Shown in pieces: positions 30,944 to 48,597 of a DNA stretch of 64,000 bases (position 1 is the stretch's first letter; the number at the start of each line of letters is the position of its first letter). The stretch is taken from positions 1,856,001 to 1,920,000 of the forward strand of contig OY762911.1 in the NCBI GenBank assembly GCA_963666565.1, given 5' to 3'. The stretch comes from Thermoanaerobaculia bacterium. GTDB taxonomy: Bacteria > Acidobacteriota > Thermoanaerobaculia > Multivoradales > Multivoraceae. The notes beneath the pieces are model-generated. The model ran no database searches. It saw nothing but the letters and a program-made list of their open reading frames with translations, and had not been told where the DNA came from. The translations under genes and the position numbers were made by a program.

Positions 30944-31146
30944 GGCGTCTCCTGCGTGGTGCCATCCAGGCACCCGCTGACGGGCGCTCGGACTGATTGC
31001 GTGTGGCGCGGATCGCGCCGCATGAGTTCAAGGCGTACCCTAGCAACGGGTCAGTTATGGCAAACTTGAATCTGACGTTCTCGGCGGAAAGAAGTTTGGC
31101 ATATCCCCTGTTCCACTCCCGTTGCTCCCGTCCTCGTCCGTCCTCG

Positions 31147-32745
31147 TTGACGGCTGGCGAGTTCGAGCGCGAGTTCGGCACGGCTGCTGGCGGCGAGGGC
31201 GGCCACGTCGAGTTCAAGGAGGGGCTGTCGGCGGCCAGGATCGCCGAGGCGGTGGTCGCCTTCTCGAACGCCGACGGCGGCGTGATCCTGCTCGGCGTAC
31301 ACGACGACGGCCGCGTCAAGGGCCTCGGTCCGAACGGCCAGCGCGACGCGCGCTTGCACCAGATCGTGGCGAATCTCCACGATCCGGGTCGCTATGACGT
31401 CCGGGAGCTTGACGTCGATGGTCGAACGGTCGTTGTCCTCTCGGTGCATCGGCGGGAGGAGGGCGTTGCCCTGACTTCCGACGGCCGCGTGCTGACGCGG
31501 ATGGGCGCCTCGAACCGGCCTCTCCTGGGCCGCGCCCTGTCCGAGCTTGTCGCGGCGCGTTCCTTGCAGAGTTTCGAGCGTACGGATGCGGGGACCCCGC
31601 TCGCCGGGGCCGATCCCGAGCTCTTGAGCGAACTGGCGCGTGCCTGGAGTTGGAGTGGCGACGGGCAGGCGGATCGCCTCCGGGAGCAGGGCTTTCTCAC
31701 CGGCGATGGCCGGTTGACCGTCGCGGGCGCGCTGTACCTGACCGCCGAGCCGAAGCAGTTTCTGGGCAAGGCGTTCGTCGAGATCTTCCGGTATCGGGAC
31801 GAGGGCGATGCCTACGACTTCCGGGAAGAGGTCGCCGGCCCGTTGCCGACTCAGGTCGAGAGGACGACGGAGATCGTGATGCGGGAGATCGGCTTCGACC
31901 TGGTCGTGCCGGACCTCCGCCGGCACGAGCTCCCGCGTTTGCCGGAGAAGGTGGTCCGGGAGGCGATCGCCAATGCGGTCGCGCACCGCTCCTACGAGGT
32001 GAACGGGGTCTCGACGCGAGTCGAGATCCGGCCGAACCGCGTCGTCGTCACTTCTCCCGGCGGGCTGCCGGAGCCGGTGACGATCGAGAACATCCGGGAG
32101 CAGAACGCGGCGCGGAACCGTGCCGTGATCGCGGCTCTGCGGCGGTTCCGTCTGGCCGAGGATGCGGGACGCGGCGTCGACGTCATGGAGGACGAGATGG
32201 CTGCGAACCTGCTGGCGCCGCCGGAGTTCGCCGAGCCCGACGACGGCCGGGCGGTCGCCGTCACGCTTCGGCTCGAGGCGCCGGTCACGCGGGAAGAGAG
32301 GGCCTGGGTCCACGAACTCGAGCAGCAGGGCGACTTGAAGCCCGGGGACCGTCTGCTCCTGGTGGTCGCGAAGCGCGGAGAGCGGCTCACGAACGCCAGG
32401 GCGAGGGAGATCCTGAGCGTCGATGCGCTTGCCGCCCGCGCCGTCCTCCAGCGGCTCCGGGACGCGGGACTGCTGGTACAGGAGGGTGAGCGCGGCGGCG
32501 CGGCCTACCGGATCAGCAGCGACCTCGACCGGCGGCACGCGCATCTCGGCGCCCAGGAAGTGGACGACCTCGTGCTGGCGATGGCCGACGAGACGCCGGT
32601 CACCAACGCGCTTCTGCGGGAGCGGACCGGACTCAGCCGGCCTCAGGCGCTGGCCGTGCTGGCGCGGCTCGTTGCGAGCGGGCGCCTGGAACGCCGCGGC
32701 GAGCGGCGCGGCACGCGGTACGTTCCGGCCGGCGTCGACTCCTGA
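31147..32745 (+). CDS. AlbA_2/Schlafen-like domain + HATPase_c_4 (RecG-C-like) + winged-HTH protein
   Basis: VEFKE, VVAFSNADGGVILLGVHDDG, REAIANAVAHRSY, SPGGL, RNR and GRGV, with two C-terminal wHTH-like segments. Start uncertain (31057 or 31147). Confidence 0.85.
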   Translation: MTAGEFEREFGTAAGGEGGHVEFKEGLSAARIAEAVVAFSNADGGVILLGVHDDGRVKGLGPNGQRDARLHQIVANLHDPGRYDVRELDVDGRTVVVLSVHRREEGVALTSDGRVLTRMGASNRPLLGRALSELVAARSLQSFERTDAGTPLAGADPELLSELARAWSWSGDGQADRLREQGFLTGDGRLTVAGALYLTAEPKQFLGKAFVEIFRYRDEGDAYDFREEVAGPLPTQVERTTEIVMREIGFDLVVPDLRRHELPRLPEKVVREAIANAVAHRSYEVNGVSTRVEIRPNRVVVTSPGGLPEPVTIENIREQNAARNRAVIAALRRFRLAEDAGRGVDVMEDEMAANLLAPPEFAEPDDGRAVAVTLRLEAPVTREERAWVHELEQQGDLKPGDRLLLVVAKRGERLTNARAREILSVDALAARAVLQRLRDAGLLVQEGERGGAAYRISSDLDRRHAHLGAQEVDDLVLAMADETPVTNALLRERTGLSRPQALAVLARLVASGRLERRGERRGTRYVPAGVDS

Positions 32746-41392: not shown

Positions 41393-41733
41393 CGCGGCCG
41401 CCGCAGGCGGCCGGAAGCACGCGCCGGCCGGAGGCCGCATCCGCCTTCGGCGCCGGATGAGGGGTTGGCGCCGGGCCTTGTTGGTCGCCATGCACAGTGG
41501 GCACGAAACGCCCTGCCTATTCGCCGCGCGCGGGGAGCGACCCAGCGCGGTGTGTCGACTGTTGTATTCGGCAGGAGACCCGGCTCGCAGGCCCACTGCG
41601 TTGACAACCAACGGCGGGAAGCTACCGTGCGGGTCGCTGGCGCGTCAAACCGGCTTCGCCCGCGGCGCGGCGTCTCCGCGGCGCGCGGCTCGGCGGCGTT
41701 TTCCGGTTGCCGGCCGGCCGGGCGCCATGGAGA

Positions 41734-42507
41734 CTACGGCGTCGGGATCAGGCTGGCCACGCCGGCCAGGGCGGCCAGGAAGGCCGTTGTCGCCGCCCAG
41801 AGGGTGCCGGCGATCAGAAAGCCCTTGCGTTCGGAAAGCCGAAACACGGCGGCGGCGCCGAGGCCGAGCAGAGCGACATGCCAGACGGTGAAGGGCGTGA
41901 TCCTCATCAGGACCGCTTCGAGCGCCCAGTTCCCGGTGGGAAACAGCAGGTTCAGGCCCGGCACGATCACCGCGTCCGCCAGTTCGGTGGGCGATGCGAT
42001 CCCCTCCGGGCCGCGGCCGCGCGAGAGCAGCGCGCTGACCAGACCGCCGAGCCACGCAACGACGCCTAGATGGACGGCGAGCGAGAAGGACTGTCCGAAG
42101 CTCCCTTCACCGCGGAACGCCGTTACCAGCAGCCAGACGACGAGCGCCTGGAAGAGCCAGGCGCCGATCAGGCTGAAGAGCCCGAACACGGTTCCCCCCA
42201 CGAGGATCACCGCGTTCAGACCGGGAAGCGCGTCGGCCATGTCCGCGAGAAGCGGTTCATCCGACACGCTTGGCCATGTCGCGAGGAACTGGACGGCGCT
42301 CAGGGCGAGGAGCAGCGCCGCGGCGCCGGCCCAGGGTCGATGCTCGCGGACGATCGCGAAGCTGCTTCGAGGGGAGACGACGATCCCGGCCAGGACCTTG
42401 AACCATGCCTGCCGCTCGGTTTCGGCGCCGCCGGCGTATGCGATCGGCTCGGCGCTTTCCGGACGGACGGCGGCTTCCTCTTCCATGCGCGTCGGATCCT
42501 CCACCAT
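41734..42507 (-). CDS. Yip1-family membrane protein
   Basis: GIVVSPRSSFAIVREHRPW, about 5 TM helices, F.QSFSL, TPFTVW and LSERKG. Confidence 0.8.
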   Translation of the reverse strand: MVEDPTRMEEEAAVRPESAEPIAYAGGAETERQAWFKVLAGIVVSPRSSFAIVREHRPWAGAAALLLALSAVQFLATWPSVSDEPLLADMADALPGLNAVILVGGTVFGLFSLIGAWLFQALVVWLLVTAFRGEGSFGQSFSLAVHLGVVAWLGGLVSALLSRGRGPEGIASPTELADAVIVPGLNLLFPTGNWALEAVLMRITPFTVWHVALLGLGAAAVFRLSERKGFLIAGTLWAATTAFLAALAGVASLIPTP

Positions 42508-42778
42508 GACGATTCCTCCTGCCTGCCGGCGGCCTCGCTCACCGACACGGTGACGGCGGTGGCGGCCGGCGCGCCGACCCCGGTCCATCGACCGGTTCTC
42601 GATCCGCGGACCATACTGGCACAGGGGCGACGGCGGACGGGCCGCCGGGCGCCGGCACGCCGGCGGCGGCCCGTCGACCGCCGTCGACGTGGAGCGCGCC
42701 TGATCGAAGCGAGCGCTCCGGCCTCTTCACCAGGGAGCGCGAAGGTCCGTCGTTGCCGCCATGCCGGTTCCGGTTCGG

Positions 42779-43558
42779 TTACGCCGGCAGGAGTCGGGAC
42801 GCCGTGGCGACCGACGCCGCGGCGAAGGCCGTCGTTGCCGCCCAGTAGACGGCCGCGAGCAACCAGCCCTTGCGCCGGGGCAGCTCGAACACCTGGGCCG
42901 CCCCTACGGCGAGCAGTACGACGAACCAGATCGTGAAGGGGTTGACGCTGGCGTAGAAGACGTTGAGGGCCGCGTTCTCGCCGGCCAGCAGCAGGTCGAG
43001 GCCCATCTGCGCCTGCAGGTCCAGCGGCGACCGGATCGCTTCGAACCCGCGGAGGTGGAGGAGGAGGAAGTTGGTCCAGTCCTTGACGTGAAGGACCAGA
43101 GCCAGATGGACCGTCAACGAGAGGGACTGGGCAAAGCGGAGTTGCCCCTGGAGCGCGATTGCCAGCAGCCAGACGAAAACCGTCTTGAGGACGAGTCCGA
43201 TGGCGAGGACCAGCGGGCCGGCTGCCATCGCCAGCCAGCGCGCCGCTCCGGCTGTCCGCTCGACCTGCGCCATCATGAGGTCGACCTGCTCCGGGCTGTC
43301 CGGCATCGTCTCCGTCAGTTGAGCCCGCGTCGCGTGGTTGTTCAGTGGCGCCGAGGCCGAGGCCAGGGCGGCGGTACCCGCCGCGAGCACAAGGAACGGC
43401 GCCAGCCACGGGCGGCGGCGGTGGATGACCTCGAAGCTCCGTCGGGGCGACGCGAAGATGCCGACCAGCGCCTCGAGCCATGCGTGCCGGCCTGGCGAGT
43501 CTTCGCCGCCGGTCTCGGCATGGCCTTCACCTTCGATGCTGCCGAAGCGCCCAGTCAT
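42779..43558 (-). CDS. Yip1-family membrane protein
   Basis: GIFASPRRSFEVIHRRRPW, FAQSLSL, NPFTIW and LPRRKG. Paralog of 41734-42507, with an ATGA overlap to the ABC ATPase. Confidence 0.82.
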   Translation of the reverse strand: MTGRFGSIEGEGHAETGGEDSPGRHAWLEALVGIFASPRRSFEVIHRRRPWLAPFLVLAAGTAALASASAPLNNHATRAQLTETMPDSPEQVDLMMAQVERTAGAARWLAMAAGPLVLAIGLVLKTVFVWLLAIALQGQLRFAQSLSLTVHLALVLHVKDWTNFLLLHLRGFEAIRSPLDLQAQMGLDLLLAGENAALNVFYASVNPFTIWFVVLLAVGAAQVFELPRRKGWLLAAVYWAATTAFAAASVATASRLLPA

Positions 43559-44340
43559 TCCGTGCTCCTGTTCCCGATCCAGGAGAGGCGGGAGAACCTC
43601 TCGCGTCTGGAGATGCCGAGAATGAGGTTCTCAAGCCGCCCGGCGCCGTCGTCTCCTTCGGCGGCCGGCAGTTCGCGGAATTCCTCGCGGGAGCACGACA
43701 GGAGGACCTTGCCGGCCCTGATGACGGCGATGTGGGTCGACACGCGCTCGACGTAGTCGAGCATGTGGGAGGTCAGGAAGACGGCCGTGCCCTGGTCGGC
43801 CATCTGCTGCAGGATCGACATGACGGTGCGCGCGCTCAGGGCGTCCATCCCCTCGAACGGCTCGTCGAGGAACAGGACCCTGGGCGCGTGGAGGGTCGCC
43901 GCCGCCAGACGGATCTTCTTCCTCATGCCGTGAGAGTAGGTCGTGATCGGCCGCTTGCCGGCTTCTTCCAGGTCGAAAACCGTGAGCGCCTCGTCCGTCC
44001 GCTGCCCGGCGTCCTCGCGGCTCAGGCCGTAGATCCGGGCGTACGAGAGCAGCAGCTCTTCGCCGGTCAGGCTCTCGAACAGGACGCTGTGGTCCGGCAC
44101 GATGCCGAGTTGCCGCTTGAGTTCCGCGTCGTTTACGTCCACCGGCTTACCGAGAAGCCGTACCGTGCCCTTCGTGGGCGTCACGACTCCGGTCAGCATC
44201 GACCAGGTCGTCGTCTTGCCGGCGCCGTTGGGGCCGACGAAGCCCAGAATCTGCCCCTCCCGGACCTCCAGGTCGACGCCGTCGACGACGACGTTGCCCC
44301 CGTAGGACCGGGTCAGGTTCTCTGCCTTGATTGCTTCCAT
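43555..44340 (-). CDS. ABC transporter ATP-binding protein
   Basis: Walker A GPNGAGKTT, signature YSHGMRKK, Walker B FLDEPF and H-loop TSH. RBS AAAGGA before ATG 44340. Confidence 0.92.
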   Translation of the reverse strand: MEAIKAENLTRSYGGNVVVDGVDLEVREGQILGFVGPNGAGKTTTWSMLTGVVTPTKGTVRLLGKPVDVNDAELKRQLGIVPDHSVLFESLTGEELLLSYARIYGLSREDAGQRTDEALTVFDLEEAGKRPITTYSHGMRKKIRLAAATLHAPRVLFLDEPFEGMDALSARTVMSILQQMADQGTAVFLTSHMLDYVERVSTHIAVIRAGKVLLSCSREEFRELPAAEGDDGAGRLENLILGISRRERFSRLSWIGNRSTE

Positions 44341-44432
44341 GCGTGGTTGTGTTCCTTTTGGTCGTAAGGGGCAGAAGATGTGTAGGGGCGGGAGACACAA
44401 GGGGCGGGGGCCAGCTGGTGCGGAGGGTTCAG

Positions 44433-46024
44433 CTAGTGCGGAGGGTCCTTGAGCAGGAGTTCGTGCGTCCGCGACTCGATTTCGCGCCGTTGGCGCGCCG
44501 TCGACGGTCGCCACGCCAGGGCCGAAAACGTGAGAGCGACGCCGGCGGCGATCGTGGCCATGAGCCCTCCGTTCCCGGGTCGCTCCAGTATCCGCGAGAC
44601 CAGGATCGCGAGTACGAGGAACGCCATTATGGGGAGGGTGGCGACAAAGCTCACCCCCAGGTTCTCTACCTCGAACTCCGTGGCGCCTCCGATCCTGCGC
44701 TTGGGCCAGTACAGTTGAACCAGGCCGTAGACCGCGTCGGCGACCAGCAAAAGGGCGGCGACCAGGGTTACAGCCAGAACTGAGAGTGTCCAGTTGCCCG
44801 GGCCGAAGTGAGCCAAACCGACGCCTGTCGCCAGAACGACGACCGGGATCGCCAGCAGCGCAGGTGCCCTGGCCGGTGCCCGAAAGATACGGAACGGCCT
44901 TAGCGGCAATGCGAGGGACTCACGCCAGACCTGGCAACTCGGAGGCGGTTTCTCGGTCCGAACGCCGTTGAGGAGGATGACCGTTACCAGAGCGGCGGTC
45001 ATCAGGCCGAGTACAGGGTCGACGGTGGTGTAGGTGGCGTACGCGAGGCAGATGACGTAGCACCATCTGACCCCCTTGGCGCGACATAGGCACTCGAGTT
45101 CGACGAGTGTCAGACAAGCGCCCGGCGACAACCGGCGACAACGGCGCAGGAGTCCCGCCAGGGCGTAACCGTCGAGGCCGTCCGCCGGTCTCCACCCGGG
45201 CGAGAGAGGAATTGGCGGAGCAGGAGTCGGTACTCGATCCAGGCGGTCGCCGCGAGAAGACACAGCAGAACTCCCAGTCGCAGGATGTTCGGTGCGAGCG
45301 CCCCGGGCGAGTCGATGATGGCGGCGAGGAGACCGGTAGGGGTGTAGCCCAGCGCGACGAGAACCTCCGCGTCGCGGACCGAAGCGGCGACCGCTTCGAG
45401 CTCGGCCTCGCCGTCCAGGACGCCGATGCCGACGCGGAGGGCCTGAATCGCCGCGACGATCAGGATGAACAGGCCGACCAGGCCGATCGTGCTTTCGACC
45501 AGCCGGTCCACGGTCAGGATGAGAATCGCTCCAAGCCGCCCGAGCAGCAGTGCCGTGGCTGCCAGACCGACGGTCGCCAGCAGGAAATCGACCAGCCCCT
45601 GGGGTCGGGTCGCGAGCAGGTAAAGCGCCGCGGGTCCGAGCCCGATCAACCAGTAGCCAGCCAGACTGAACCCGAGCCGCAGCATGTAGAGGTCCCTGTA
45701 GGCGGCTGGGAGCGGGAGGAACGGCTCTATGTCCAGGAGCCAGTTCACCGGAAGGCGCAGGACCACCTGGGCCAGCAACCACAGGAGAGTTGCAACGCCG
45801 GTGGCGAGGTTCAGCAGGTTGCGGCGTAGCGGTTCGTCCTCGATGCCGAAGAGAAGGGAGAGCAGCGGCACCGTCGCGGCAGTGGCAACGACAAGGTAGA
45901 TCAGGGCGATGCCGACGGCAACGACTTGCGTCTGATCGCGTCGCTTCAGGGCGCCGGGAAGAGCTAGCCTACCCAGTGTCAGCAGCAGGTCCGCCCGGCT
46001 TCCGGGCTTCGTCAGTACGGCCAT
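44433..46024 (-). pseudogene. Putative ABC permease split by a single-base frameshift (or sequencing error) near 45161-45163
   Basis: The N-half (ORF 45110..46024) and C-half (end of ORF 44433..45782) each align to consecutive parts of the intact paralog at 34186-35799. Confidence 0.7.
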
Positions 46025-46401
46025 TGGATCCTCGTGTCGCGGCGTCCAGTTCTGGAAGGCGGGCAGGCGCCTGGACTGGCGGCGGGCCCGGCTGGTTGCG
46101 GAGCACAGAGGGAACGAGACCCCCCGCCGCCTCGCCTGACGAAGGGAGCGACCCTAGGTCCCGGGGCGACGGCCAAGTCCGGCAGGGGATCCGAGTAGCG
46201 GGCCCACTGCGCCTTTGGCAACCAACGGACGGACGCTAGCGCGCCGGAGTGGCGTCCGTCAAACGCACTTGCCCCGTAGAACGGGAGAGGAACGATGGCC
46301 CCGAAGGAGCCGCGTGAGATCGACCCGCTGACGGGTGCTTCGGTCTCCTTCGTTGCCATCGAAGCCTCTCCACGGTGTTCTACGGTGGTTGAATACCCGG
46401 C

Positions 46402-46695
46402 CTACTTGCAGAAGACCAGGGCAATTGGCGCGTACGCTCCGCCGATGGCGAGACCGGCGCCGCCGGTTGCGGCGCCAACACCGAGGGCGACGAAACTGAA
46501 GCCGAGGACGGCGGTGATGCACCCCAACTTCCCTCCTCCGGTGGTTGCCGCGAGAAGCGGTTCACTGGCGCGCTCGATCTCGGCCGGGGTACCGAAGTCC
46601 GGGATCCCAAGGCGAGAACCGTTGTCGCCCACCGCTGGAGCGAGAGCGAACACGAAGGTGAGGAGAAGGGTTGCGGCTACTGCTTTCTTGGACAT
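46402..46695 (-). CDS. Bacteriocin-like precursor 1 (signal peptide + double-glycine leader + 43-aa Gly/Ala-rich core with 2 Cys)
   Basis: RBS AAAGGA. MSKK plus a hydrophobic stretch, then ...ASEPLLAATTGG|GKLGC...VFCK. Confidence 0.75.
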   Translation of the reverse strand: MSKKAVAATLLLTFVFALAPAVGDNGSRLGIPDFGTPAEIERASEPLLAATTGGGKLGCITAVLGFSFVALGVGAATGGAGLAIGGAYAPIALVFCK

Positions 46696-46767
46696 GTCGT
46701 TCCTTTCAGGTTTGGTTCAGAGTGTGTCGGTTGTTGGGTTGGGTTCTTCAGGACAGGCGGATCGCGG

Positions 46768-47103
46768 TCAGGCGAACATCGCGCAGGCGACTCCGACGAC
46801 GCCGAGGCCGATGCCGACAGGCGCCAGGACGCCGCTCAGGGCCAGGGCCAGGCCGGCTCCCGCGGCGGCGCCGCAGGTCGCCTCGACCGCCGGCCCCGAA
46901 CCCGTGGTCAGGGCAAGGCCCTCGGCGCTCATGCGATGCTGGCCGAAGTCCGTGACGCGCGACGGAGGCGACGCCGTCTGCACGGCATGGTCTCCGGCGG
47001 TGCCGAGTCGATCAGCTGTCTGGTCGACCGGGCTGTCCGGTTGACCGGCAGATGCGGCCATCAGTGCGCCGCACGTGAGAATGGAAAGAAGAGTCTTCGT
47101 CAT
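46768..47103 (-). CDS. Bacteriocin-like precursor 2 (signal peptide + GS-type double-glycine leader + 42-aa core with 2 Cys)
   Basis: RBS AAGGAG. MTKTLLSILTCGALMAASA, then ...MSAEGLALTTGS|GPAVEATC...VACAMFA. Confidence 0.72.
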   Translation of the reverse strand: MTKTLLSILTCGALMAASAGQPDSPVDQTADRLGTAGDHAVQTASPPSRVTDFGQHRMSAEGLALTTGSGPAVEATCGAAAGAGLALALSGVLAPVGIGLGVVGVACAMFA

Positions 47104-47163
47104 GGGTGGTGCTCCTTTTCTTCGATTGGTTTTGTTTTCGGAAGAGATCGCAACTGCGCCGAG

Positions 47164-47484
47164 CTAGAACGGCACCGGACAGGGGAACGGGATCGGGAAC
47201 GGAGTCGGTAGCGGCATGGGCAGGGGAGGCCTGGGCCACGGGATCGGCATCGGACAGCCGGGCTGCGGAATGCAGCCGCAGGGCCAGTAGACGGCCAGTT
47301 CGACGTGTTCCGGCGCGATGTCCAATGCGCCGAGCGCGTAGCCGGCCGGCGCCTCGAACGACTCGAGATCCCATCCGGCCGCGAGTTCGTCGCCGCCGGA
47401 AACCGGCGCTTCGCCGGTGGTCGGGGTCGCCATCGCCGCGCCGGCGAGGAAGAGGGTTGCAAGGAAGGCGATGCGGTACTTCAT
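47164..47484 (-). CDS. Small secreted protein with a Cys/Pro-rich (xP)n C-terminus
   Basis: RBS AAGGAG and ATGA coupling to the C39 peptidase. Signal peptide ending AMA. Tail WPCGCIPQPGCPMPIPWPRPPLPMPLPTPFPIPFPCPVPF. Confidence 0.72.
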   Translation of the reverse strand: MKYRIAFLATLFLAGAAMATPTTGEAPVSGGDELAAGWDLESFEAPAGYALGALDIAPEHVELAVYWPCGCIPQPGCPMPIPWPRPPLPMPLPTPFPIPFPCPVPF

Positions 47485-48101
47485 TGTGGGTTTGCTCCTT
47501 CAGGAGTTGTGGGTTGTGGTGAAACGGACGGCGTTCCCGCCGTCCGCGAGATCGGTGAGGGGCCGCCGGTGAAGGCGAGGACGATGCCGTCCCAGGAGCG
47601 GTCGAACGTTCGTGGGCTCATCCGCAGGCGGCCGATGGACGGATCGTCGACGACGAGTTCGTCGCCGGCGGTGCGGATGACGACGAAGTGGTCGCCGTGG
47701 ACGTGGGCGATCGCCGGGAGCGGAATCTCGCCGAGGCGGTCGATCGGCAGGTGGAAGCCCTGGCTCGTCACGCCCCGCCGCTCGGCGGCTCGCTTGATCG
47801 CCAGAAGGCTGGTGCCGTCCGGTCCGGTTCCGGTGGCGGCTTCGAGTTCGGCGAGCGTCGAGTCGCCGACGCCCCAGTGGTCGAGGACCATCTTCAGCGC
47901 GGCCGGTCCGCAGTCGGTACGGTTCTGCTGGCGAACGACCTCGCCCTCGGCCGACGCCGACGGGTCGAGCGACGCGGCCCAGGCGAGCCGGTCGATCGTC
48001 GGTCCGACGGCCCGGACCGCGACCGTCGCGAGGCCGGCCGCGAGCACCAGGCCGGCGGCGGCGATGTGCCGCCGGCGAACCCTGAGTCGCTCAGCGCGCA
48101 T
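47481..48101 (-). CDS. Stand-alone C39-family cysteine peptidase with N-terminal signal/TM anchor
   Basis: QQNRTDCGPAALKMVL (Q/C), GTSL, DHFVVI (H), DDPSIG (D) and FDRSWDG. No ABC domain is fused. Confidence 0.88.
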   Translation of the reverse strand: MRAERLRVRRRHIAAAGLVLAAGLATVAVRAVGPTIDRLAWAASLDPSASAEGEVVRQQNRTDCGPAALKMVLDHWGVGDSTLAELEAATGTGPDGTSLLAIKRAAERRGVTSQGFHLPIDRLGEIPLPAIAHVHGDHFVVIRTAGDELVVDDPSIGRLRMSPRTFDRSWDGIVLAFTGGPSPISRTAGTPSVSPQPTTPEGANPQ

Positions 48102-48597
48102 CGTTCGCGGCCTCCAGAAAGGAACGCCACGCGGTTTCCGGGCGTTCTCCGGTGACGACGGCGCGGACCCGGGACCGCCCGTCTACCAGGAACACGAGCG
48201 GTACGTGGATGACGCCGAAGCGCCTGGAGAGGGCGGCGTCCGGGTCGGCGACGGTGTGGGCGATGCCATCGACCTTCGGCGCTTCCTGGCCGGCCCCGGC
48301 GACGACCGCGATGAGATCGAAGGACTCGCCCCCGACCTGCGCCATGCGCCGCAGCGTCGTGATCGTGCGGTCGCAGTTGCCGCAGCCGGCCCTGGCGAAG
48401 ACGACGACCCGCGGCCGTTCTCGGGAGACCGGCAGGAGTTCGCCGTCCGCGAGTCCGGGCAGGGCCGGGAACGCCGCGCCGACCTTGGGGCGCTGAGCCT
48501 CTCGCGCGGCCAGGCTGGACTGGAACCAGATCAGGCCACCGACCGGGACGGCGACGGCGACGACGACCGCGGCGGCGGCCAGCCGGCGACGGTTCAT
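48091..48597 (-). CDS. Membrane-anchored thioredoxin-fold redoxin (TlpA/ResA-like)
   Basis: N-terminal TM, VGAAFP, VVVFARAGCGNC (CxxC), DPDAALSRRFGV and cis-Pro motif VP. Confidence 0.8.
   Translation of the reverse strand: MNRRRLAAAAVVVAVAVPVGGLIWFQSSLAAREAQRPKVGAAFPALPGLADGELLPVSRERPRVVVFARAGCGNCDRTITTLRRMAQVGGESFDLIAVVAGAGQEAPKVDGIAHTVADPDAALSRRFGVIHVPLVFLVDGRSRVRAVVTGERPETAWRSFLEAANDAR

Follow-up and report, generated by a model that had tools for sequence, protein, structure and literature searches.

By textbook criteria, double-glycine (GG) leaders and C39 peptidases mark export that takes place in one step and is coupled to a transporter. A dedicated oxidoreductase accompanies the GG-leader peptidase of Cys-containing bacteriocins in pediocin-like operons with thioredoxin-type accessory proteins and in the C39/VKOR/thioredoxin fusions of Bacteroidota, and in such systems the peptidase forms part of the exporter, with cleavage on the cytoplasmic side. 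The SDP peptide, 42 residues long and carrying a disulfide, is exported by Sec and processed outside the cytoplasm, in a system that has no C39 peptidase and no GG leader. Here we analyze a gene cluster of a Thermoanaerobaculia bacterium of sponge-symbiont type (Acidobacteriota, family Multivoraceae), found at 41734-48597 of a stretch of 64,000 nucleotides (GenBank assembly GCA_963666565.1, contig OY762911.1, positions 1,856,001 to 1,920,000 of the forward strand; hereafter the window). The cluster consists of nine co-oriented minus-strand genes, which encode a membrane-anchored thioredoxin-like protein, a stand-alone C39 peptidase, three small proteins with signal peptides (p106, p111 and p97), an ABC permease, an ABC ATPase and two Yip1 proteins. 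That this is a conserved and widespread system is a real finding. From sequence comparison it is probable, and with some assurance, that GG leaders are processed outside the cytoplasm here. With moderate confidence, we would read the whole chain as a class II bacteriocin or microcin-like system whose maturation has moved from the cytoplasmic face of a peptidase-containing ABC transporter (PCAT) to the periplasm, and in which immunity is carried by ABC/Yip1 cassettes.

Two further systems are close to this one. Rouse et al. 2017 (PMC5557850) describe FapD, from the Fap amyloid system of Pseudomonas, as a C39 peptidase that works in the periplasm and depends on its catalytic Cys, and they call its target unclear. 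FapD is like the peptidase of the window in being an exported stand-alone C39 enzyme (the location here is predicted), but it serves amyloid secretion together with the FapF outer-membrane channel, whereas the genes around the C39 gene here encode bacteriocin-like peptides, a thioredoxin, Yip1 proteins and a probable ABC-2 exporter. In Bacillus, the Yip1-family protein YknW acts with an ABC transporter as YknWXYZ, which protects against the SDP peptide toxin, according to PMC4887032. Both systems encode a membrane protein of the Yip1 family together with an ABC transporter, and both do so in connection with a hydrophobic peptide toxin (a toxicity that is presumed for the cluster here); the cluster differs from YknWXYZ in having no YknX-type adaptor and in a permease whose model has the ABC-2 fold rather than the MacB/FtsX type. 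No published bacteriocin-type periplasmic C39 peptidase, and no system of the same architecture, was found in full-text searches of the literature, which leave subscription journals largely outside; FapD was the one published periplasmic C39 peptidase that these searches gave. The original prediction had recognized no characterized system with this architecture; this holds for the arrangement as a whole, but a periplasmic stand-alone C39 peptidase has a precedent in FapD.

The listing of open reading frames (ORFs) in the window gave the gene order as it was first noted, with all nine genes present and co-oriented; all features named below lie on the minus strand unless stated otherwise. The thioredoxin gene (48091..48597) overlaps the C39 gene (47481..48101) by 11 nt, the C39 gene overlaps p106 (47164..47484) by 4 nt, and the ATPase gene (43555..44340) overlaps the first of the Yip1 genes (42779..43558) by 4 nt. 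The overlapping start and stop codons of the original prediction were thus seen at three junctions, and its strong ribosome-binding sites, of the AAGGAG or AAGGAA type, stand ahead of all three small ORFs. The ATPase most likely starts at 44340 rather than at 44514. An SNF2 helicase gene lies upstream of the cluster and a convergent gene for a DUF6152 protein downstream. The arrangement is far beyond chance: all 40 primary loci (the window and L034-L072) show this order, flanked by the same pair of genes, and the cluster occupies one site in every same-genus genome searched. In each of these 40 loci SNF2, thioredoxin and C39 follow one another in the same order, and 36 continue through the ATPase and Yip1 genes; of the other four, L038, L049 and L060 are cut off where the contig ends and L055 where the fetched flank ends.

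The C39 gene encodes a protein of 206 aa with an Arg-rich N-terminus and one N-terminal transmembrane (TM) segment. It matches Peptidase_C39 (PF03412) with E 1.4e-29 (103 bits, cut-off 22) and is the sole C39 match in its own genome. Its nearest solved relative is the double-glycine protease LahT150 (6mpz, E 1.3e-20), followed by PCAT1 and ComA, and its catalytic residues align with the active-site region of LahT150. In an alignment of 11 homologues Q58, C64, H138 (within an HFVV motif) and D153 are invariant. Because of these invariant residues and these solved relatives, we take it for an active-type C39 peptidase and not for a C39-like domain. It thus shares the peptidase family, with an intact Gln/Cys/His/Asp set, with the class II systems of the LahT/PCAT1/ComA/CvaB type, which are served by a PCAT, also called an AMS protein (for ABC transporter maturation and secretion). 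In those systems the C39 domain is fused to the N-terminus of a type IV ABC exporter of about 700 aa. The enzyme here, by contrast, is unfused, as first noted, has an N-in anchor of its own (hydrophobic segment at residues 11-37) and is predicted to face the periplasm.

To place the catalytic domain, we compared 87 stand-alone C39 relatives of 134-250 aa, obtained by a search restricted to lengths of 113-361 aa; among them are proteins at 37-48% identity, including one whose record is titled Ignavibacteriales. The pattern of the catalytic Cys motif was matched in 75 of the 87, and an N-terminal hydrophobic 18-mer precedes the catalytic Cys in 70 of these 75. Lys plus Arg are more numerous before than after this 18-mer in 62 of the 70 (median 4 against 1.5). 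By the positive-inside rule, the enzyme is therefore predicted to lie with its N-terminus inside and its catalytic domain outside, in agreement with the extracytoplasmic location that had been proposed for it. In one genome (G024; L033/L071) the C39 gene occurs in two pieces, covering residues 9-47 and 47-205, which is a frameshift or an assembly error.

Two of the three small proteins have the features of GG precursors. p97 (46402..46695) has a signal peptide, a GG leader ending at G53-G54 and a glycine-zipper core of 43 aa with Cys at core positions 5 and 42; p111 (46768..47103) has a signal peptide, a GG-type leader with a G-S site and a Gly/Ala-rich core of 42 aa with two Cys. The core lengths are those of the original prediction. 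The cores of the GG peptides are Gly/Ala-rich and closed by one Cys near each end. p106 has a signal peptide, a variable spacer and a Pro-rich core with Cys near both ends, and its pro-region is nearly absent in some relatives. Signal-like n/h/c regions are seen at the N-termini of p106, p111 and p97. No Pfam or NCBIfam family was matched by any of the three, and p106 had no usable match in the ESM Atlas either. We rejected p106 as a GG substrate, as its family is without a conserved G-G/A/S site. Of the three small ORFs proposed as precursors processed by the C39 enzyme, p97 and p111 thus fit the GG leader pattern and p106 has no double-glycine site. A lipoprotein nature was also considered for p111 and judged unlikely, the residue at -1 before its Cys being Thr and an AxA-like site following. 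The head-to-tail cyclized core, or core modified as a RiPP (a peptide that is made on ribosomes and altered after translation) beyond a disulfide, that the original prediction had allowed for was dropped, there being no hint of it and no candidate enzyme in the cluster.

The peptides were then compared across 50 loci (the window and L034-L082), 47 of which have at least 1500 nt downstream of the C39 gene. A peptide was called GG type if it had a signal peptide, a G-(G/A/S/T/R/E) site, a first Cys within 10 residues and a last Cys no more than 7 residues from the C-terminus. At least one signal-peptide ORF lies within 2.6 kb downstream of the C39 gene in 45 of the 47 loci, at least one peptide of the type with signal, GG site and two Cys in 44, and the Pro/Cys-rich p106-type peptide in 35. 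Among 78 unique GG-type peptides, position -12 is hydrophobic in 72 (Leu in 45) and position -7 in 69 (Leu in 55); position -4 is hydrophobic in 53 and Thr in another 25, and D or E stands at -10 in 55. Positions -5, -8, -11, -13 and -14, in comparison, are hydrophobic in just 13-36 of the 78. The cores are 42-54 residues long (median 43.5, n=78), with two Cys in 71 and four in 7, and the leader is free of Cys in 77 of the 78. C39 recognition has been described (PMC6363468) as Leu-12/Glu-8/Leu-7 and Val-4/Leu-7/Leu-12 held in hydrophobic pockets, and the leaders of the 78 peptides match this pattern by their profile of hydrophobic residues at -12, -7 and -4. The conserved hydrophobic positions and the Gly at -2 are those of class II GG leaders, but here the leader sits behind a Sec signal peptide.

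In an alignment of the p97 family (20 sequences, 24-66% identical to p97 of the window), Met1, Leu(-7), Gly(-2), Cys59 and Cys96 are invariant, and so are G86, A87 and P90 of a core motif. p111 belongs to a second type (type B), which is present in 19 of 39 related primary loci. Hybrid genes were also found in which the signal and spacer of p106 type are joined to the GG helix and core of another family, so the parts of the precursors appear to be modular. Compared with the PCAT/AMS class II systems, the likeness lies in the leader (Leu-12, Glu or Asp around -8 to -10, Leu-7, hydrophobic character at -4, and Gly-2 with G, A or S after it), in small unmodified Gly-rich cores with a disulfide, which is predicted here, and in variable loci with several peptides. 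The difference is that a Sec signal peptide precedes the GG leader.

The thioredoxin-like protein (168 aa) has a CGNC motif, an N-terminal RRR and one TM segment. It matches Thioredoxin_2 (PF13098) with E 3.2e-6 (27.9 bits, cut-off 27) and, weakly, MauD, DsbE and ResA in NCBIfam, with no equivalog reached; a PDB sequence search gave no match at E <= 0.01. Its hydrophobic anchor covers residues 4-32, and with the same layout as the C39 peptidase it is predicted to be N-in/C-out. By its thioredoxin fold, CxxC motif and N-terminal anchor it belongs with the membrane-anchored thioredoxins of the TlpA/ResA/DsbE kind, and proteins of this type are usually reductive. The original prediction had the redoxin set the disulfides of the peptides; a CGNC protein predicted to face outward is indeed present, but its likeness to TlpA/ResA/DsbE makes a reducing role equally possible. 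Unlike the pediocin-like and Bacteroidota systems, the peptidase and the oxidoreductase are here separate single-TM proteins, predicted to face outward and encoded by overlapping genes.

The distribution of the system was followed from the genus to the phylum and to metagenomes. A stand-alone C39 was found in 24 of 24 same-genus genomes searched, and by their record titles the related loci come from metagenome-assembled genomes (MAGs) of Candidatus Multivorans, Thermoanaerobaculia, Holophagales and Acidobacteriota. In other families of the order only C39 frames of PCAT length (739-1051 aa) were found. The C39 profile was matched at E <= 1e-8 in 92 of 401 Acidobacteriota genomes, mostly at PCAT length (the tally includes G189, a genome flagged as unpublished that has a PCAT-length match only and enters no other result), and about 15 genomes outside the genus have C39 frames of stand-alone length. 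Of the 15 distant Acidobacteriota loci (14 fetched, and L082), 10 have an ABC ATPase on the downstream side of the C39 gene and 4 have a Yip1 gene as well. ORFs were read in L082, in part of L083, and in L095 and L096; peptides with signal, GG site and Cys follow the C39 gene in L082, L083 and L095, and a CxxC thioredoxin ORF is upstream of it in L082 and L095. In L096 (G149:C1:1257500-1272500), a C39-like ORF that has no N-terminal anchor is next to an ORF of 519 aa with a motif of the CxxxCxxC type, and this looks like a different, cytoplasmic RiPP-type cluster.

In metagenome contigs, at least 279 of 600 matched stretches encode C39 relatives, among the matches listed. Forty of these loci were examined, of which 30 have good stand-alone C39 frames, with GC contents of 0.29-0.68. 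A peptide with signal, GG site and Cys is directly downstream in 26 of the 30, including identical loci (L097 = L098 = L099; L108 = L109). The original prediction had named absence of the small ORFs beside C39 homologues as a point that would speak against it, and they are conserved there both in the 45 of 47 loci given above and in these 26. In 20 of 25 metagenome loci (one ambiguous, three duplicate pairs), a TM-anchored CxxC thioredoxin-like ORF extends up to the start of the C39 gene or runs into it. A Yip1-like match was found in at least 17 and an ATPase in at least 13 of the 30, and these two counts are lower bounds since many contigs end early. The neighborhood of C39, thioredoxin and peptide thus recurs in other Acidobacteriota families and in metagenome contigs, often with ABC and Yip1 genes. 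From this recurrence we take the conserved core of the system to be the thioredoxin, the C39 peptidase and the peptide with signal, GG site and Cys, with ABC and Yip1 proteins as frequent companions.

A second C39 locus (L073-L081), 52-58% identical, lies elsewhere in 7 of the 24 same-genus genomes and is not found in the genome of the window. The signal and GG peptides of these second loci are different, with more charged two-Cys cores; some of the loci have their own thioredoxin, permease, Yip1 and ATPase genes, others just C39 and one peptide. Three of them contain one frame of about 1600 aa (L073:2990-7897, L074:2984-7825 and L077:1099-5913) that joins a resistance-nodulation-division (RND) pump of AcrB type (residues ~19-1056) to a C-terminal ABC ATPase (~1330-1480). 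The frame ends ~100-180 nt before the C39 gene in L073 and L074, and ~2.1 kb before it in L077, with an insertion-sequence integrase (rve_3) in between. Nothing comparable was found in the window. The fusion is unusual, if real, and the RND pump could carry periplasmic peptides over the outer membrane in those secondary loci.

The transporter genes follow the peptide genes. The permease of the window is split over two frames, 45110-46024 and 44433-about 45140, whereas that of the relatives is a single frame of about 530 aa. One extra G behind 45160, a site that is a short G run, is present in the contigs of all four public runs (at most 3 samples of a single study); in each run the extra G has the full depth, with 11.6/11.6, 52.1/52.1, 68.9/68.9 and 44.8/44.8. 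Because all four runs carry the extra G and the relatives have a single frame, we regard the frameshift as an assembly error and the permease as one intact gene (44433..46024, ~531 aa), and it was ruled out as a pseudogene. In each of the four runs the summed contig depth at 44020-44251 is ~8- to 50-fold above that of the adjacent bins, and loose ends are numerous; the ATPase has its Walker A region here, to which contigs from other organisms are drawn, and the peak is no sign of copy number. The ATPase matches ABC_tran (E 3.3e-29) and is DrrA-like, with 215.8 bits against TIGR01188 (drrA), below the cut-off of 312. The two Yip1/YknW-like membrane proteins, a (42779..43558) and b (41734..42588, start uncertain), match Yip1 in Pfam with E 4.4e-10 and 2.5e-15, respectively; both stay below the cut-off of the YknW family (NF052650; 65.6 and 69.6 bits against 110), and no adaptor gene goes with them.

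The 530-aa permeases matched no Pfam family at E <= 1. We therefore turned to an AlphaFold model, made with the close relative L046 as the first sequence of a 19-row alignment (mean pLDDT, the predicted local distance difference test, 77.4). A Foldseek search of the PDB with this model gave nothing at E <= 0.001, the best matches, at ~0.1, being chains of a mycobacterial ABC efflux pump. In VIA-align the model matched ABCA7 (Z 11.4, rmsd 3.8, 200 residues aligned), ABCA1 (Z 10.9, rmsd 9.9, 393 aligned), CcmB (Z 10.6, rmsd 4.9, 201 aligned), the mycobacterial efflux pump 8k1m_B (Z 9.0, rmsd 7.2, 394 aligned over residues 12-524), NosY (Z 9.0) and Wzm (Z 6.6). These matches to membrane domains of type V ABC transporters cover both halves of the permease, with Z from 11.4 down to 8.3 for ABCA7, ABCA1, CcmB, NosY and 8k1m_B. 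Since Z values under ~13 can stem from a common helical arrangement, we call it only probably ABC-2: judged by the model, it is a probable fused double ABC-2/type V exporter with a DrrA-like ATPase. This again differs from the PCAT/AMS systems, in which the exporter is a type IV PCAT; here there is, by the model, a type V (ABC-2) exporter, and there is no membrane-fusion protein or TolC partner. Elsewhere in the window, an ORF on the plus strand (30997-32742) with Schlafen AlbA_2 and HATPase_c_4 domains has no relation to the cluster.

Two kinds of noncoding element are found around the transporter genes. A stem-loop (46283..46373; minimum free energy -58 kcal/mol, z -4.85) begins 29 nt 3' of p97. 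None of 200 shuffles was as stable, its arms are conserved in relatives, and a U tract is lacking. The stem-loop may serve as a 3' end, or as a hairpin that stabilizes mRNA and so sets the balance between peptide and immunity transcripts. Between the stem-loop and the permease lies an element of ~220 nt (EL1, 46044..46264) that is more conserved than the genes around it. EL1 has promoter-like hexamers TTGACG and TAGCGT, 18 nt apart with a variable spacer, followed by a long imperfect helix as a structured leader. A second copy, EL2 (41464..41650, 70% identical to EL1), is directly downstream of the last Yip1 gene. Copies of the element are ~190-220 nt long with boxes TTGACG-N18-TAGCGT/TAACTT. 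EL1 occurs in 37 and EL2 in 33 of the 40 primary loci, always in the same orientation and bracketing the module of permease, ATPase and Yip1. In the helix of 15 EL1 and EL2 sequences, 94.9% of cells pair, against 42-57% with the partners slid; 6 of 39 pairs change on both sides, and many one-sided changes from GC to GU fit an RNA of the operon's strand. As the structure was derived from those same sequences, this evidence for the helix is suggestive only. A search of Rfam with 45900-46500 gave no match at E <= 1; a sigma-70 promoter scan gave no site, and a terminator scan one site against 3.4 expected. EL1 and EL2 could represent a leader RNA together with a small RNA as its paralogue, or else paired sites at which recombination exchanges cassettes.

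Within the genus the genes of the locus diverge to very different extents. Identity to the proteins of the window is 75-99% for the flanking SNF2 and DUF6152 proteins, 79-93% for the ATPase, 64-80% for the C39 peptidase and 51-73% for the thioredoxin, and it falls to 43-68% for Yip1a, 32-69% for the permease and 32-67% for the peptides. The number of genes varies as well, with 1-4 peptide, 1-3 permease and 1-3 Yip1 genes per locus. When the permeases were clustered at 55% identity, a KWKC-type peptide, present in 5 of the 39 related primary loci, was found in exactly the 5 that have permease cluster P3, which follows directly after the peptide. The p106-type peptide is identical in L044 and L046, yet the peptide/permease cassettes of these two loci differ. 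The linkage of peptide and permease is descriptive, not statistical, because close kin share labels. Divergence and cassette pattern show signs of an arms race, that is, a conflict-type signature, and the best explanation from these comparisons is that peptide genes and their cognate permeases are swapped between strains as cassettes.

The comparisons show gene content, motifs, conservation, synteny, cassette variation and a predicted topology; the sequence of events that we would propose beyond these is as follows. An ordinary signal peptide would take the precursors (p97, p111 and their relatives) through the inner membrane via Sec, and the remaining pro-peptide would carry a canonical double-glycine leader helix. 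The membrane-anchored C39 enzyme, with its catalytic domain in the periplasm, would recognize this helix and cut after G-(G/A/S/T), releasing a core of ~43 residues that may form a Gly/Ala-rich helical hairpin. The translationally coupled, membrane-anchored thioredoxin would join the two terminal Cys of the core or keep the right redox state. The type V ABC exporter and the Yip1/YknW-like proteins would clear the peptides from the membrane of the producer, giving self-immunity and possibly release, and the ABC/Yip1 genes would be transcribed from their own conserved promoter-leader element.

It may instead be that the peptides are exported and processed by the C39 enzyme and are not toxins, but signals, components of the envelope or of outer-membrane vesicles, or sponge-directed factors, with ABC/Yip1 as an exporter or as housekeeping proteins. 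The cluster has no classical small immunity gene, the record titles of the relatives point to host-associated MAGs, and the ABC module has its own promoter-like element and would therefore be regulated apart from the peptides, all of which would suit such a role. Against it, the peptide, permease and Yip1 genes diverge fast between near-identical flanks, and the variable number of cassettes, with one peptide type strictly tied to one permease type, is the pattern of toxin and immunity and not of signals; the cores, moreover, are hydrophobic glycine-zipper hairpins unlike known pheromones. We consider this explanation unlikely, at about one chance in a handful.

A conventional system that has been split is a weaker candidate. 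In that case a cytoplasmic C39 enzyme would remove the hydrophobic stretch together with the GG leader, and the ABC-2 transporter would export the core in the manner of a PCAT. The C39 enzyme is nearest in sequence to PCAT peptidase domains, and an ABC transporter is always nearby; but the positive-inside rule puts the catalytic domain outside in 62 of 70 homologues, and the thioredoxin has the same N-in anchor, a chemistry of CxxC and two Cys making sense outside the cytoplasm. The precursors, in addition, show the usual n/h/c organization of signal regions, and AxA-like sites precede the leader, and some secondary loci consist of C39 and peptide without an ABC-2 permease. This makes a split system very improbable. 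A surface fibre or amyloid of the Fap/Fil kind, with the Gly-rich peptides as subunits and the pro-peptide cut by a periplasmic C39 enzyme, is hardly to be expected: glycine-zipper peptides can aggregate, and the C39 protein has weak NCBIfam similarity to FapD (NF058616, E 8.9e-12) and FilB (NF050078, E 4.4e-5), but the scores are far under the cut-offs (44.8 against 330 bits and 23 against 475), no FapF-type barrel, FapA-C/E partner, usher or chaperone is found among the cluster genes or neighbors, and the ABC exporter, the Yip1 genes and the hypervariable cassettes are foreign to Fap/Fil systems.

A bacteriocin-like system with periplasmic maturation is thus the reading that we prefer, and several points weigh against it. 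First, no outer-membrane channel, membrane-fusion protein, adaptor or TolC-like gene is found in the cluster or in the 12 neighboring ORFs. Secondly, a GG site is missing from p106, which among the small genes is the most constant one in the genus, and p106 stands outside the proposed model. Thirdly, the role of the thioredoxin may not be disulfide formation, since it could equally keep the catalytic Cys or the precursor reduced. The methods also set bounds: topology and signal peptides were called by simple rules of hydropathy and charge, and ORF calling and peptide classification were heuristic. The Gly at -2 is part of the definition of the GG type (the other leader positions are not), so that the site is partly defined by the classification. 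Many of the counted loci are close kin, and the counts thus overstate the independent support. Finally, complex prediction of C39 residues 40-185 with p97 residues 24-97, both given as alignments, supports the reading weakly, being only a weak pass, with a score of 0.53 (runs 0.53, 0.48 and 0.54) against 0.00 for the best of 3 controls. The runs share at least 77% of contacts, and the pLDDT of the partner is at least 43. Of 80 solved complexes 58 attained the mark, and of 110 mismatched pairs 2 did so; at scores of 0.60 or less just 7 of the 80 solved complexes passed, along with both passing mismatches. Because complexes of C39 with GG leaders have already been solved, the pass may reflect mere likeness.

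Taken together, the system may represent a widespread third route for GG peptides, in which Sec export is followed by the outward-facing thioredoxin and C39 enzyme and yields a glycine-zipper toxin of ~43 residues with an end-to-end disulfide, guarded by exchangeable type V ABC/Yip1 immunity cassettes that in this genus are bracketed by the EL copies; for this joint reading we see the chances as balanced. The same balanced reading has the route span Acidobacteriota, an Ignavibacteriales-titled record and many unassigned environmental lineages. If GG peptides do go from Sec to a periplasmic C39 enzyme, genome mining for bacteriocins in Gram-negative and uncultured bacteria would change, since the tools require a PCAT and would discard precursors with signal peptides. 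Periplasmic C39 peptidases, the substrates of FapD being still called unclear, would gain a testable class of substrates with a defined cut site. Sponge-associated and soil bacteria would, moreover, hold a large hypervariable reservoir of disulfide-stapled membrane peptides and of the ABC/Yip1 resistance genes that go with them.

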